This document shows, piece by piece, positions 21,676 to 26,986 of a stretch of 64,000 bases of DNA (positions are counted from its first letter, which is position 1; every line of letters starts with the position of its first letter). This DNA is from an uncultured Acidobacteriota bacterium. Lineage in GTDB: Bacteria; Acidobacteriota; UBA6911. The position numbers were made by a program, and so were the translations under genes. Under the pieces are notes generated by a model, which worked only from the letters and a program-made list of their open reading frames with translations, was not told the DNA's origin and searched no databases. The DNA is taken from contig CAWJKZ010000021.1 in assembly GCA_963843575.1 (NCBI GenBank), positions 1 to 64,000 on the forward strand. The letters are read 5' to 3'.

Positions 21676-21936
21676 GCCCTTCCGGCGCCGGCTCGCGGGA
21701 ACCATACCTCGCCCGCTCTCCGCTGAGATTCCACTTCCAGCCGTATCGCGCCGCCTCGTTCGGGTGGCAGGGCGCCCCATCGGCTGCCCCGCCTCCGGCG
21801 ACCCTCCCGGTCGAACGATTATCTGAAAAAAAAAGGTTCGGATCGAAACATTAGGGGCAGCCCGGCATTGCCCAGTCGGCTGGATCGGTTTGCCGCCGGT
21901 TCTTCCAGGCGATGCCGAACAAGGAGGAGGTAGGCG

Positions 21937-22107
21937 ATGTCGAAGCTCAACCTGATCGAGTTGACCGAAGGCGAGGCGACCGCGATCGCCGGAGGCAGCA
22001 ACAATTTCTACTGCTGGGGGGGCGGGGTGATGACGGTCTTGGGGATTGCCTCCATGAACGCCATGGCTGCCACCGCCGGAGTCTGGTTCATTTACACCTA
22101 CTGCTGA
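21937..22107 (+). CDS. Double-glycine-leader bacteriocin/RiPP precursor A (56 aa)
   Basis: AAGGAGGAGG RBS; MSKLNLIELTEGEATAIAGG|SNNFYCWGGGVMTVLGIASMNAMAATAGVWFIYTYC* (translated by hand). Confidence 0.85.
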   Translation: MSKLNLIELTEGEATAIAGGSNNFYCWGGGVMTVLGIASMNAMAATAGVWFIYTYC

Positions 22108-22155
22108 CGTTCGAGCCCGACGGGCGAATGGAGTCAGCGGGAGGGGAGGAAGACC

Positions 22156-22329
22156 ATGGAGTTCCGAGAACTCGCATACGACGAAATGCTGGGTATTTGC
22201 GGAGGCGCCATGCCTTACAGTTGCGCGCTTCTGGGCGGTTTCACCGCCGTCGCGTTTCTGGCTGGCCAGTGGTGGGCGGTCGCCGGAGGGCTGTTGGCGG
22301 CCTACAACACCGGCTGTTTCTCGGCCTAG
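22156..22329 (+). CDS. Double-glycine-leader bacteriocin/RiPP precursor B (57 aa)
   Basis: GGGGAGGAAG RBS; MEFRELAYDEMLGICGG|AMPYSCALLGGFTAVAFLAGQWWAVAGGLLAAYNTGCFSA* (translated by hand). Confidence 0.85.
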   Translation: MEFRELAYDEMLGICGGAMPYSCALLGGFTAVAFLAGQWWAVAGGLLAAYNTGCFSA

Positions 22330-24004: not shown

Positions 24005-24795
24005 CGGTCCCGGGGCACGACTGCGCGAACGAGGCGATGGTCGCCGAACACGTCAGCAAACGGTACGGCGAGGTTGTCGCGCTCGACGACCTGTGCCTGT
24101 GGCTGCGCCGCGGCACCCTGCTGGGGCTCGTCGGCCCGAACGGGGCGGGCAAGAGCACGACGATAGGGTGCCTCTCCGGATTGCTGGACCCCTCGGCCGG
24201 CACCATCCGGGTCTTCGGAGAACGGTTTTCCGGAGACAGCGAAGACGCGCGCAGGAGGATCGGGGTGATGCCCGAGAGGCTTGCGCTGTTTGACCAGTTG
24301 CAGGCCCTCGAGTTCCTCGAATTTTGCGCCCGCATGTTCGGCCTGGACGGGGCCACAGCGCGTGGGCGCGCCGAGGAACTCGCCGCGTTTCTGGATCTCC
24401 TTCCGGCGGCCCATCGGCGCCTCGCCGAGTTCAGCGCCGGGATGCGGCGCAAGGTGGCGTTCGCTGCCGCCGTCATCCATCGCCCGGATCTGCTCCTGCT
24501 GGACGAACCCTTCGCCGGCATGGATGCCCGGACGGTGTCGATGCTCAAGTGCTGGCTCGTCCGCCTGACGGCCCGCGGGGGAACGGTACTGATAACGAGC
24601 CACGCCCTGGACACGATCGAACGATTGTGCGACGAGGCCGCCCTCATTGCCGGAGGTAGGCTGATCTGGCGCGGGAACCTCGCGGGTCTGGCGCGCGGAG
24701 GGGAACTGGAGGCGGACGGATGCAGGTTCAGGACTCTGGAGTCGCTCTTCCTGCACCTGGTCGGCGCTCCGAACGACGGGCCAGGCTGGCTCTGA
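23977..24795 (+). CDS. ABC transporter ATP-binding protein
   Basis: CAGGAGG RBS before GTG23977; GPNGAGKST, FSAGMRRK, LLLDEPF, ITSH. Confidence 0.88.
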   Translation: MSYKNAGSVTVPGHDCANEAMVAEHVSKRYGEVVALDDLCLWLRRGTLLGLVGPNGAGKSTTIGCLSGLLDPSAGTIRVFGERFSGDSEDARRRIGVMPERLALFDQLQALEFLEFCARMFGLDGATARGRAEELAAFLDLLPAAHRRLAEFSAGMRRKVAFAAAVIHRPDLLLLDEPFAGMDARTVSMLKCWLVRLTARGGTVLITSHALDTIERLCDEAALIAGGRLIWRGNLAGLARGGELEADGCRFRTLESLFLHLVGAPNDGPGWL

Positions 24796-24808
24796 TTGGT
24801 GGCGCACG

Positions 24809-26986
24809 ATGTTCAGACGAAGATACCCCTGTGTCCGGCAGCACGATGCGACCGATTGCGGCGCGGCTTGCCTGGCGACCGTGGCGCTCCGTTTCGGGCG
24901 GCGCTTCTCCCTTGCCCAGATTCGGGAGTGCGCTTGCACCGACGGGGGCGGGACGAACATCCTGGGCATGCTTGGGGCGGCCCGTCGCCTCGGGTTCGAG
25001 GCCAGGGGGGTCAAGGCCGGCCCTGAGGCGCTCGGGAGCCTGCCGCTCCCCGCCATCGCCCACGTGGTCAGCGGCGCCCTGCTGCACTTTGTGGTCGTCC
25101 ATCGCCTCACCCCCACCCACGTCGTGATTGCCGACCCCGCGCGCGGCCTGGTGCGAATGAGCCGCGATGAGTTCCGGTCGATCTGGACCGGCGTGCTTGT
25201 CCTGCTCGCTCCCGACCCCGGCGCGTCCCGGGACGAGTTGGCGCCCTTTCCCCCCTTGCGCAAGCGCTTGTTCCGGCTGATGCATCCCCAGGCGAAGCTG
25301 TTGGCCGGCGCGTTCGCGGCCGCCCTGGTGGCCACGCTGCTCGGCATGAGCACCAGTGTGTTTCTCCAGTTTCTGGTGGACAGGGTCGTGCTCGCGCGCA
25401 ATGCGCAGCTGTTGCCCCCGATGACTGCGCTGGTGACCGCGCTGGCACTGATGCGCGCGGCGTCGGGATGGTTGCGGGGTGCGCTTCTGGCACGTATCGG
25501 GCAGCGGATCGATGCCACCCTGATGCTCGGGTATTTCCGGCACGTGATCCATCTCCCGATGCAATTTTTTGCCACCCGTCCCGCCGGCGAAGTGCTCGAG
25601 CGCTTCGCCGATGCCGTGAAAGTGCGCGACGTCATCGGCGGCACGGCGGTGGTGCTGCTCGTGGACACGGCGACCACGCTCGCCGGTTTTGCCTTCCTTT
25701 TTTATTACAGCGGACGCCTGGCCGTCGCCAGCCTGCTCCTGTGGTTTTTCGCCTTGCTTGCGGGCGGCGCGGGAAACGGCCCCTTGCGCCGCGCGCAGCG
25801 TCGGACCATGGAGCGCGCCGCGGAGGTGCATTCCGGGCTCGTGGAGGCGCTCGGCGGCGTGGGAACGGTCAAGGCGCTCGGTGCCGAGGACGCGATCTGC
25901 GGAAAGGCGGAGCGGCGGATCGGTCGTTTCCTGGAGGAACTGCTTCATGGGACGCTCGTGGCCGTTTCGGCTACCACCGTGGGCGACGCGGCAGCCTCGG
26001 TCGGGGCCGTGTGCGTGCTGGCGGCCGGCGGGGCCGCCGCGCTCCGCGGCGAGTTGAGCGCCGGGGAAGTCGTCGCCTTCCATTCCATTCTGATCTCGAT
26101 GCTCCAGCCGCTGCAGCGGCTCCTTGCGATGAACCAGGCCATCCAGAATGCGGTGGTGGCGGCCGACCGGCTCGACGAGATCCAGGCCCTGGCCGTGGAG
26201 GGGCGGGCCGACACCCCCCTTTCCCCACCGCCGCCGGGGCCCGCGCTGATCCGGTTCACGGATGTCGGGTTCCGCTACGGCATGCGGCAGCCGGTGCTCT
26301 CCGGAGTCAACCTGACTATTCGCCCGAACACCCTCGTGGCCCTTGTCGGCCCGAGCGGCAGCGGCAAATCGACGCTGGCTAAGCTGCTCCTGAAGTTCTA
26401 CGAGCCCACCTGCGGGGAGATCGACGTCGGGGGGCGCGCTTTGACCCGGTATGATCTCGAGGGATGGCGCAGGCACGTGGCCTGCGTTGTTGAAGACCCG
26501 TTCGTCTTCAGCGGCACCGTGCTGGAGAACATGAGGCTCGCCGACCCGGAGGCGTCTGCGGACGCCATGTTCCGCGCCCTGGAAGGAGCGGGTTTTGCGG
26601 GTACCCAAGAAAACCTGAACCGCCATGTCGGCCAGAGGGGAGCGGCCCTGAGCGGCGGGGAGCGGCAACAGCTGGCCATCGCACAGGCGCTCCTGCGGCG
26701 GCCGCGCCTCTTGATTCTCGACGACGCCATGGGCAACCTGGATTCGGTGCTCAGGAGGCGGGTGTTCGACACGCTGCACCGCCTGCGGCACGACATGACC
26801 ATCATCGTCATCGGACACCGGCTGGGGGCGGAACTCGCCGCCGACCAGGTCGTGGTGGTCGGATCCGGCCGGATTCTCGCACAGGGGAGAGCCTCGGAAC
26901 TTGTCCCGGCCGGCGGGCCCCATTCTCGGGGATGCCCCTGCGAGTCCGCCGCCGGTGCGGATTCAGAAACGGCGTCCCCAGGTTGA
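24809..26986 (+). CDS. C39 peptidase-containing ABC transporter (PCAT)
   Basis: QHDATDCGAACL (Cys), LHFVVV (His), IADPARG (Asp), TM domain, GPSGSGKST, LSGGERQ. Confidence 0.93.
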   Translation: MFRRRYPCVRQHDATDCGAACLATVALRFGRRFSLAQIRECACTDGGGTNILGMLGAARRLGFEARGVKAGPEALGSLPLPAIAHVVSGALLHFVVVHRLTPTHVVIADPARGLVRMSRDEFRSIWTGVLVLLAPDPGASRDELAPFPPLRKRLFRLMHPQAKLLAGAFAAALVATLLGMSTSVFLQFLVDRVVLARNAQLLPPMTALVTALALMRAASGWLRGALLARIGQRIDATLMLGYFRHVIHLPMQFFATRPAGEVLERFADAVKVRDVIGGTAVVLLVDTATTLAGFAFLFYYSGRLAVASLLLWFFALLAGGAGNGPLRRAQRRTMERAAEVHSGLVEALGGVGTVKALGAEDAICGKAERRIGRFLEELLHGTLVAVSATTVGDAAASVGAVCVLAAGGAAALRGELSAGEVVAFHSILISMLQPLQRLLAMNQAIQNAVVAADRLDEIQALAVEGRADTPLSPPPPGPALIRFTDVGFRYGMRQPVLSGVNLTIRPNTLVALVGPSGSGKSTLAKLLLKFYEPTCGEIDVGGRALTRYDLEGWRRHVACVVEDPFVFSGTVLENMRLADPEASADAMFRALEGAGFAGTQENLNRHVGQRGAALSGGERQQLAIAQALLRRPRLLILDDAMGNLDSVLRRRVFDTLHRLRHDMTIIVIGHRLGAELAADQVVVVGSGRILAQGRASELVPAGGPHSRGCPCESAAGADSETASPG

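Follow-up and report, generated by a model that had tools for sequence, protein, structure and literature searches.

The two-peptide bacteriocins of class IIb, among them lactococcin G and the plantaricins EF and JK, are cationic, contain GxxxG motifs and are encoded together with a small dedicated immunity gene, and both peptides of a pair are needed about equally. Double-glycine leaders generally comprise about 15–30 residues that end in GG (or in GA or GS), with hydrophobic residues at positions −4, −7, −12 and −15 and usually a Glu at position −8. Cys pairs are found in the class IIa microcins, and thuricin CD consists of two hydrophobic helical-hairpin sactipeptides, the thioether cross-links of which are made by radical-SAM enzymes encoded in the cluster, with ABC transporter genes alongside. 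In the case of lantibiotics, immunity is conferred by pumps of the LanFEG type. A report on an expanded class II microcin set describes the export of these peptides as requiring a C39-peptidase ABC exporter (PCAT), a membrane-fusion protein and TolC, and their immunity proteins as small (≤216 aa) membrane proteins encoded adjacently (PMC12219008). The present work concerns a locus of five plus-strand genes, specifying two small precursor peptides (pepA and pepB), a permease, an ABC ATPase and a PCAT, which lies between 21.8 and 27.0 kb of a 64,000-nt stretch of DNA (positions 1–64000 of contig C21; hereafter the window) from a 6.68-Mb genome that is 88% complete and assembled into 27 contigs. 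The host belongs to the phylum Acidobacteriota, as the four closest loci in public genomes are titled as Acidobacteriota or Acidobacteria metagenome-assembled genomes. A first-pass annotation of the window had noticed the two open reading frames (ORFs), the permease, the ATPase and the C39 exporter on one strand of a probable Acidobacteriota genome, and both the positions of these genes and the assignment of the host are upheld here. Based upon the evidence presented below, the five genes probably form an operon for an unmodified, uncharged pair of hydrophobic peptides that would be controlled by an extracytoplasmic function (ECF) sigma factor, stapled by disulfides and bacteriocin- or microcin-like in action. 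The operon occurs in a few soil Acidobacteriota and looks like a new variant of a bacteriocin (peptide-toxin) system; the interpretation best supported is the one that the first-pass annotation had suggested, namely a pair of unmodified GG-leader peptides accompanied by a PCAT and an ABC pair.

In its overall plan the module resembles the class IIb systems: two different small peptides are encoded by adjacent genes of one operon and strictly co-occur in the loci studied here, both have double-glycine leaders (15–30 residues in class IIb) and a dedicated C39 ABC exporter, and their cores are predicted to be helical and membrane-seeking with small-xxx-small motifs. The cores differ from those of class IIb, however, in being uncharged, in carrying two invariant Cys residues each and in lacking a strict GxxxG, and the module differs in its outer-membrane host, in a 12-transmembrane (12-TM) ABC pump that takes the place of a small immunity gene, and in its control, for which an ECF-sigma-like element is indicated here, whereas class IIb systems employ a peptide-pheromone three-component system. 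Also unlike class IIb, it is the core that is conserved and the leader that varies. With the class II microcins MccV, MccL and MccN of Enterobacteria the module shares a Gram-negative-type host, a double-glycine signal of the kind cut by a PCAT, and peptides that are small, hydrophobic, Gly/Ala-rich and non-cationic (the cores here being 36 and 40 residues, under 10 kDa). These microcins are, however, single peptides and mostly longer, and, unlike their systems, the module has no fusion protein, TolC partner or small immunity gene. Because several features of each class are absent here, we have treated the locus as a variant that would work like the class IIb bacteriocins or class II microcins, but as a member of neither. 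The module's PCAT resembles PCAT1 of Clostridium thermocellum (4ry2) in having the same three-domain order, a full-length alignment and identical Gln, Cys, His and Asp residues in the C39 domain, but it differs in the residues Glu562 and Asp639, in its diderm host and in having a pair of two-Cys peptides as presumed substrates. Thuricin CD likewise combines two hydrophobic helical hairpins with Cys cross-links (predicted in our case), the genes for which lie beside ABC transporter genes; however, no radical-SAM enzyme is encoded in the module, and a plain disulfide is the likely staple. The permease has about the same length as the chains of a mycobacterial efflux pump (8k1n, 8k1o and 8k1p) and is accompanied by a DrrA-like ATPase, but there is no family membership at the sequence level and the match in fold is weak (E ~1e-2).

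Lastly, some of the pepA and pepB relatives match the PF10439/Blp-family bacteriocins, whereas the window's own two peptides match no model of Pfam or NCBIfam, even at E ≤10, and with neither peptide profile did a search of the PDB sequences produce a match under E 0.09. Full-text searches of the literature found no paper on this peptide family or system and no characterised ribosomal peptide toxin from Acidobacteriota, and in the report on the expanded microcin set (PMC12219008) there are 0 occurrences of 'Acidobacteri'. The statement in the first-pass annotation that no characterised example from this phylum was known is in agreement with these results.

The two peptide ORFs recur in other genomes and show clear marks of selection. 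When 40 relatives were searched in six frames, using the permease and PCAT sequences as queries, the same cluster was recovered in four other genomes, one from the same genus (G001) and three more (G006, G013 and G011). In all five module-carrying genomes pepA is followed by pepB directly upstream of the transporters, and the order pepA, pepB, permease, ATPase and PCAT was observed by tblastn wherever a locus was of sufficient length. When 185,579 species genomes were scanned for the peptide pattern, five loci were returned, consisting of the four known Acidobacteriota genomes and one false match. The latter (L033:6285–8210, on a Saccharimonas contig) was rejected as a relative, the pattern having been found there in a 641-aa repeat protein with many ...YCWG... 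repeats. A scan of metagenomes yielded 11 further loci, with both peptides present on every contig that extends far enough upstream, and the pair first noticed in the window thus recurs in four other Acidobacteriota genomes as well as in metagenome contigs. Protein clusters were found for both peptides (22 for pepA and 32 for pepB, among 5.8 billion), of which those with a named source are all annotated as 'hypothetical protein'. In alignments of nine sequences, 22 of the 36 core columns of pepA and 22 of the 40 core columns of pepB are invariant, and the corresponding numbers for the leaders are 5 of 20 and 3 of 17, with the GG always among them. By the Nei–Gojobori method, the proportions of synonymous (pS) and nonsynonymous (pN) differences in the pepA cores are 0.21–0.82 and 0.00–0.20, respectively, and their means for the pepB cores are 0.62 and 0.14; in the leaders pN reaches 0.55 for pepA and has a mean of 0.36 for pepB. 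In comparison with the same-genus genome G001, dN/dS lies between 0.09 and 0.26 across all five genes and is 0.10 for pepA. pepA and pepB are hence shown to be genuine genes, the mature parts of which are under strong purifying selection while the leaders change freely but retain the GG. A comparison of the two profiles with hhalign gave a probability of 93%, and the two genes are probably old paralogs. No extra copy of either was detected in the window's own genome, where the next-best E-values were 0.8 and 0.12.

The precursors have the pattern EL-xxx-E-xxx-I-x-GG in common. In the leader of pepA, positions −4, −7, −8, −12 and −15 are occupied by Ile, Ala (Met in most relatives), Glu, Leu and Leu, and in that of pepB by Ile, Met, Glu, Leu and Phe. 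The GG is invariant in the nine-sequence alignments, and a few relatives have GA in its place. Both precursors satisfy the double-glycine-leader consensus, and the PCAT gene lies 2.5 kb downstream on the same strand; a PCAT is likewise present beside the peptides in loci L029, L032, L035 and L042. The ribosome-binding site of pepA is of the AGGAGG type (AAGGAGGAGGTAGGCG ahead of the ATG), and that of pepB is GGAGGGGAGGAAGACC ahead of its ATG. The strong ribosome-binding sites and the ELxxxExxxIxGG leaders that had been attributed to both ORFs can thus be read in the sequence.

The cores are hydrophobic (grand average of hydropathy 0.44–1.17) and rich in Gly and Ala. In pepA the Cys residues occupy core positions 6 and 36, the latter being the last residue, with a spacing of 30, and exactly two Cys residues at this spacing are present in 19 of 19 family members. 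pepB also has exactly two (Cys23 and Cys54, spacing 31), as do all 31 members of its family, with the spacing of 31 retained throughout. Small-xxx-small motifs occur nine times in the window's pepB core and twice in its pepA core, and a strict GxxxG is absent from both. In the AlphaFold2 model of pepB, which was based upon 31 sequences, a helix (residues 20–36) is followed by a turn (37–38) and a second helix (39–52), with a block-mean predicted local distance difference test (pLDDT) score of 88–97 for residues 21–50. Cys23 and Cys54 are located near opposite ends of the modelled helix-turn-helix, and a disulfide between them would staple the pepB hairpin. A Foldseek search of the PDB with this model gave 0 matches. 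The prediction of a complex between the pepA and pepB cores, made from our own alignments and without controls, gave a best score of 0.06 against a mark of 0.32, which is evidence neither for nor against an interaction.

A HMMER search of 1.84 billion representative sequences identified 28 clusters at E ≤1e-3, three of which are long repetitive proteins. Among the distant small relatives that were retrieved (23 in number, within P0069–P0094), a leader of the GG or GA type is present in 23 of 23, and the Cys spacing is exactly 31 in 21 of them, usually with GCF at the end, while the core between the Cys residues has diverged widely. That the spacing of the Cys residues is fixed in about 25 distant clusters suggests the existence of a larger family, as yet unnamed, which the present models of Pfam and NCBIfam overlook. 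The identity between clusters in the set P0069–P0094 is at most about 50%; several have leaders of the MKKL type, and one carries an apparent Sec signal in front. The ties of the peptides to known bacteriocin families are weak, but they agree in direction: Pfam Bacteriocin_IIc (PF10439) is matched at E ≤1 by 9 of 31 pepB relatives (best 1.2e-5) and by 2 of 19 pepA relatives (best 0.013), and the language-model clusters closest to pepB are named 'Blp family class II bacteriocin' (0.92), which serves as a lead only. One pepB relative also gave a weak match to the ComC family (E 0.14). The match to PF10439 probably reflects mostly the leader.

The matches of the exporter to Pfam Peptidase_C39 (123 bits), ABC_membrane (132 bits) and ABC_tran (108.7 bits) are all above the cut-offs, that to NCBIfam TIGR01193 (406.6 bits) is under the curated cut-off of 523.85, and the protein aligns over its full length with PCAT1 (4ry2) at 493.6 bits. 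Gln11, Cys17, His93 and Asp109 are identical to the aligned residues of PCAT1, which we take to be the catalytic Cys/His/Asp and the oxyanion Gln of C39, and they are retained in 5 of 5 orthologs, in line with the intact Cys/His/Asp described in the first-pass annotation. The Walker A motif, an LSGGERQ signature and the H-loop His of the ATPase domain are all there. On this basis, the PCAT is proposed to cut after the GG and to translocate both pepA and pepB. Elsewhere in the genome, on contig C15 (229644–234983; L082:2145–7484, minus strand), there is a second PCAT that is 28% identical to that of the module. It adjoins genes for an HlyD_3 membrane-fusion protein and an OEP outer-membrane protein, forming a canonical three-part exporter, and outer-membrane efflux protein genes are present in the host genome.

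The permease gave no match to Pfam or NCBIfam at E ≤10, and its profile retrieved nothing from the PDB sequences below E 0.15. None of its 14 homologs matched a curated family on scanning, one of them having a precomputed PF09847 (12TM_1) label, and PF09847, PF16949 or PF16962 is found in only 10–18% of the members of its atlas neighbour clusters. The AlphaFold2 model of the permease has a pLDDT of 70.4. Its top Foldseek matches are the mycobacterial ABC efflux pump chains 8k1p, 8k1o and 8k1n (509–530 aa; TM-score 0.42–0.49, E 0.013–0.023, probability 1.00), which for a model with a pLDDT of about 70 is a weak fold match, followed by the half-size type V exporter subunits ABCG, Wzm, NosY, KpsM and CcmB. 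The ATPase matches ABC_tran (98.6–101 bits), and its best NCBIfam model is TIGR01188 drrA (197.5 bits, under the cut-off of 312); the lantibiotic-protection ATPase model TIGR03740 gave 127 bits, also under its cut-off. The GTG start candidate of the ATPase gene is preceded at 5 nt by AGGAGG and overlaps the end of the permease gene, and the protein is 56–83% identical to the ATPases of related loci. Most simply, the permease and its DrrA/NodI-like ATPase would constitute a fused (two-halves) 12-TM exporter of the ABC-2/type V kind. ABC-2-type pumps of this general kind protect lantibiotic producers, and because of this we propose that the permease and ATPase serve in self-protection, or else as an auxiliary exporter.

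When the 200 nt upstream of pepA from seven loci were aligned, a single common block, CTGAAA-N16-GAAACAT(TA), was observed 60–160 nt before the start codon in 7 of 7. The A9 tract that the first-pass annotation had reported upstream of the peptides is located exactly where it was described, but it is not a feature of its own: it belongs to the first half of this motif, of which it is the variant in the window's genus (G001 also has A9), and other genera have CTGAAATAG... there. Exact motif sites number 2 in the window's genome (G000), 2 in G001, 3 in G011, 4 in G006 and 0 in G013, where the region upstream of pepA is unassembled, and the reversed control gave 0 in each of the five. In G000, G001 and G006 an extra site is present 42–43 nt before an orthologous gene for a protein of 199–218 aa, which is an ECF-type sigma factor (TIGR02937 55.7 bits, cut-off 42.9; Sigma70_r2). 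This gene lies on contig C14 of G000 (774221–774817, within the stretch 774151–774817; L045/L056), with orthologs in L050, L055 and L057–L067, and it has one ortholog in each of the 24 other genomes of the family, being single copy in all 25 including G000. TGAAAT-N16-GAAAC was found upstream of it in 12 of 12 loci examined.

A weight matrix was made from 11 sigma-gene sites of other genomes and used to scan both strands of the whole 6.68-Mb G000 (~13.4 million positions). The pepA site, which had not contributed to the matrix, ranked second (26.2 bits), and the sigma gene's own site ranked third (23.6 bits). The first rank (26.9 bits) was taken by a site before an Emfourin-family gene that is followed by a CPAC redoxin gene, the fourth (20.4 bits) and fifth (16.9 bits) were at contig C20, 15993 and contig C14, 519673, and all remaining positions scored 14.2 bits or less. 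It is established that ECF sigma factors commonly transcribe their own genes, which is also stated in one account (PMC5126115). Because the motif is common to both genes and such autoregulation is common, the simplest reading is that the five-gene operon belongs to the regulon of this ECF sigma factor, and we propose that the element upstream of pepA is a promoter dependent upon it. An earlier candidate, in which two GAAA half-sites 22 bp apart were viewed as direct repeats for a response regulator, was displaced as the favoured reading once all 12 genomes examined had been found to carry the motif ahead of the ECF sigma gene. A scan of 21500–27300 for the sigma-70 consensus gave a sole promoter-like match, on the minus strand within the permease gene.

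Some further observations concern this motif. A conserved divergent small ORF seems to sit just upstream of the ECF sigma gene, and an anti-sigma gene was not identified there. The highest-ranking site (G000 contig C10, 107135–108349; L081) precedes an Emfourin gene (PF20242, 89.7 bits) and then a gene for a membrane-anchored AhpC/Redoxin protein with CPAC; in G011 (L053), too, the motif is present upstream of the Emfourin homolog. That a thiol-disulfide oxidoreductase shares its predicted regulon with exported two-Cys peptides may be more than coincidence. Two more exact matches in G006 (L052 and L054) are situated in near-identical repeat copies (CCCTGAAAGGGTTCAA...), and an ORF beside one of them resembles what we take to be a REP-associated tyrosine transposase; these matches are probably unrelated to the regulon.

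The distribution of the module is narrow. The pepB profile was matched in 5 of 51 genomes and 3 of 11 genera of the family, and in an even sample of the phylum it was matched in 2 of 401, none of them outside that family (one row in the denominators 41 and 401 comes from genome G034, which gave no specific match and on which no positive result depends). The module is rare, accessory and self-contained. Its flanks differ by genus, with ROK kinase and DeoC aldolase genes in one, CarboxypepD_reg and YceI-like genes in another and a GNAT gene in the genus of the window. The flanks of the related loci revealed no gene conserved with the module for a modifying enzyme, a regulator or a fusion protein, and no small immunity gene conserved with it. 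In G001 only, a weak PEMT-like methyltransferase ORF (L029:7151–7738; 26.3 bits, cut-off 25) is present between the GNAT gene and the promoter-like element of pepA. Methyltransferases related to PEMT act on C-terminal Cys residues, and the presence of this ORF near the Cys-ending pepA is probably a coincidence.

Taken together, these results can be accommodated by the following mechanism, several steps of which, namely the cleavage at GG, the disulfides, killing, a synergy between pepA and pepB, the immunity conferred by the pump and dependence upon the sigma factor, we infer from sequence. Transcription would start at the ECF-sigma-type promoter that includes the A9 tract, and the precursors would be made with double-glycine leaders of 17–20 residues. 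The C39 domain of the PCAT would then cut after the GG, and its transmembrane domain would carry the cores through the inner membrane. Once in the periplasm, which is oxidising, the two invariant Cys residues that lie near either end of each core would form a disulfide, by which the helix-turn-helix hairpin is stapled, and the peptides, probably together, would insert into and damage the membranes of related competitors in the manner of bacteriocins and microcins. If they did not act in synergy, they would be two co-inherited peptides and not a true two-peptide bacteriocin. The permease/ATPase pump would shield the producer by expelling the peptide from its own membrane, or would help the peptide onward. 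By analogy with known systems, a dedicated leader-cleaving exporter together with a second pump corresponds to a toxin-plus-immunity arrangement.

A number of observations weigh against this interpretation. All 50 family cores (19 of pepA and 31 of pepB) carry a net charge between −1 and +1, whereas in Gram-positive bacteria the peptides of class IIb are cationic. The conservation of the cores exceeds that of the transporters: pepA is about 64–73% identical overall to its counterparts in other genera, with an almost invariant core, while the identity to other genera is only 44–47% for the PCAT and 36–41% for the permease. As the transporters have diverged approximately like the conserved sigma factor (44–47% identity for the PCAT, 48–54% for the sigma), the near invariance of the cores points to constraint rather than recent transfer. 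Usually it is the leader that is conserved and the core that varies; the opposite is seen here, and a housekeeping-like role would also fit such a pattern. The module has neither a small immunity gene (the 115-nt gap between pepB and the permease contains no ORF for such a protein, and the next gene is that of the 519-aa permease) nor a gene for a membrane-fusion protein or outer-membrane channel, though the other PCAT of this genome adjoins both of the latter. No HlyD-type match was found in the module or on its contig, and 18 weak ones are present elsewhere in the genome; a fusion protein encoded elsewhere, e.g. on contig C15, may be used by the module. In the ATPase domain of the PCAT, the Q-loop Gln is replaced by Glu562 (26492–26494) in the window only (1 of 5 orthologs), and the catalytic Glu of Walker B by Asp639 (26723–26725) in 2 of 5, namely the window and G001, which are the two genomes of the genus, the other three orthologs having the usual residues. 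Transport by the PCAT could be slow or altered owing to these residues, but they do not indicate decay, because the ATPase domain is still under purifying selection (dN/dS against G001 of 0.21, and 0.22 for the whole PCAT). The motif upstream of pepA could instead bind another regulator, as it is from motif sharing alone that its role as a promoter is deduced. Finally, permease–ATPase pairs without the peptides or an adjoining PCAT are found at three loci, L025 and L027 of G010 and L026 of G021, in which the permease is 35–36% and the ATPase 56–59% identical to those of the window. At these loci a GG-leader ORF is missing from the 1.5 kb upstream and a PCAT from about 0.6 kb downstream, the promoter-like motif is likewise absent, and the pairs may be orphan resistance modules or a sign that the pump has a function independent of the peptides.

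Several of these observations would also be expected if the peptides were directed at the producer's own envelope, which is the main rival to a weapon, though in our judgement a rather unlikely one. The PCAT would in that case deliver the hairpins to the outer face of the inner membrane or to the periplasm as part of an ECF-controlled envelope response, for example as membrane-remodelling or stress effectors, and the ABC-2 pump would set their level. The uncharged and unusually conserved cores, the missing fusion and outer-membrane partners in a genome whose other PCAT has both, the existence of the permease–ATPase pair without peptides, and the sharing of the promoter-like motif with a sigma factor that has one ortholog in every other genome of the family are all consistent with such a role. 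However, a patchy spread (5 of 51 family genomes) with varying flanks is typical of accessory competition genes, relatives of the peptides match bacteriocin models, and the pairing of a leader-cleaving exporter with a second pump is the layout of toxin plus immunity.

A further reading, which we put forward as a tentative and doubtful one, is that the peptides are the first members of an undescribed class of GG peptides that extends well beyond Acidobacteriota and consists of uncharged helical C-x30-C hairpins (usually ending in GCF), each closed by a disulfide from end to end. The pair in the window would then form part of an envelope-stress ECF regulon, and the partnerless PCAT would confine its action to the producer's own envelope or to touching neighbours, making it an inducible short-range weapon or effector instead of a diffusible bacteriocin. 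If this reading is true, it would be the first peptide-toxin system defined for Acidobacteriota.

It is improbable that pepA and pepB are secreted pheromones with a receptor encoded elsewhere, in the manner of the double-glycine competence- and bacteriocin-inducing peptides of streptococci. PCATs do also export signalling peptides of the GG type, as stated in one account (PMC7018657), one pepB relative has the weak ComC-family match (E 0.14) mentioned above, and in a single genome (L032) a histidine kinase is encoded close to the module. However, neither a kinase nor a regulator is conserved together with the module, and uncharged, strongly hydrophobic cores of 36–40 residues would partition into membranes instead of diffusing. 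The promoter-like motif also indicates a sigma factor and not a peptide-responsive regulator, and the second ABC pump has no place in a pheromone circuit.

There is likewise little likelihood that the cores are altered before export by enzymes encoded elsewhere, for instance at the invariant Cys residues, which would make them true RiPPs (peptides made on ribosomes and modified post-translationally). Modification could take place at the invariant Cys, Tyr, Asn and Trp residues, and a weak PEMT-like ORF is present just upstream of the Cys-ending pepA in G001. This ORF, however, occurs in 1 of 5 genomes, a modifying enzyme is conserved beside the module in no genus, and a Cys spacing that is fixed across very divergent relatives is most simply explained by a disulfide. 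The first-pass annotation had correctly reported that no modifying enzyme is present in the cluster, which holds for the conserved module as well, but its label 'RiPP' is unsupported because the module is not accompanied by any conserved modifying gene, and a disulfide is the most that is expected. That the two small ORFs are chance ORFs can be virtually discounted: although they have no family match of their own and the high-GC sequence here is full of spurious ORFs, this is refuted by the pattern of substitution, with conservation across genera and a many-fold synonymous excess, and the strong ribosome-binding sites and the 22 and 32 independent protein clusters also speak against it.

A bacteriocin- or microcin-like pair, which remains the interpretation that we favour, would be of interest in several respects. 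Acidobacteriota are among the most abundant soil bacteria, and the module offers a compact case of five genes and two synthesisable peptides of 36 and 40 residues, each with one predicted disulfide. If active, the pair would add a non-cationic, disulfide-stapled hairpin type to the two-peptide bacteriocins, provide a case in which a PCAT functions in a diderm although the partners it usually has are missing, and link peptide antagonism to an ECF sigma factor.

The features of the locus are summarized in Table 1.

Table 1. Features of the peptide locus, with positions given in the coordinates of the window.
Feature	Position	Strand	Description
Promoter-like element TTATCTGAAAAAAAAAGGTTCGGATCGAAACATTAGGGG	21819–21857	+	GAAACAT half extends to 21851, which is 86 nt ahead of the pepA ATG
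A9 tract	21826–21834	+	Inside the first half-site of the promoter-like element; read directly
pepA	21937–22107	+	56-aa precursor: 20-aa double-glycine leader (...AIAGG), 36-aa uncharged core
pepB	22156–22329	+	57-aa precursor: 17-aa double-glycine leader (...GICGG), 40-aa uncharged core
Permease	22445–24004	+	519-aa polytopic membrane protein, ~11 hydrophobic segments
ABC ATPase	23977–24795	+	Start GTG 23977 or ATG 24037; Pfam ABC_tran
PCAT	24809–26986	+	725 aa: single chain with a C39 cysteine peptidase, a six-helix ABC exporter domain and an ATPase domain
Terminator-like hairpin	26997–27011	+	10 nt past the PCAT stop; 6-bp stem, weak T tail; from consensus scan

The hairpin that follows the PCAT gene is a possible end of the operon, for which the support is weak, as the consensus scan identified 8 such sites in the region compared with 4.0 ± 2.2 in shuffles. 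The spacer between pepB and the permease (22327–22446) does not show an attenuator fold, its z value being −1.0 with 29 of 200 shuffles folding at least equally well. No RNA data sets were listed as matching 21700–24100 of the window, parts of which are matched by soil DNA contigs only. Assemblies from four runs, which are short and of low depth and, as the runs may include the source sample, do not constitute independent support, gave a 235-nt contig over 21807–22034 and a 396-nt contig (run X2) that spans 26169–26564 including the Glu562 codon, and neither showed any difference to the window. In the window itself, as identified by Pfam, the five genes are preceded by a GNAT acetyltransferase gene and followed by a gene of the enolase superfamily.

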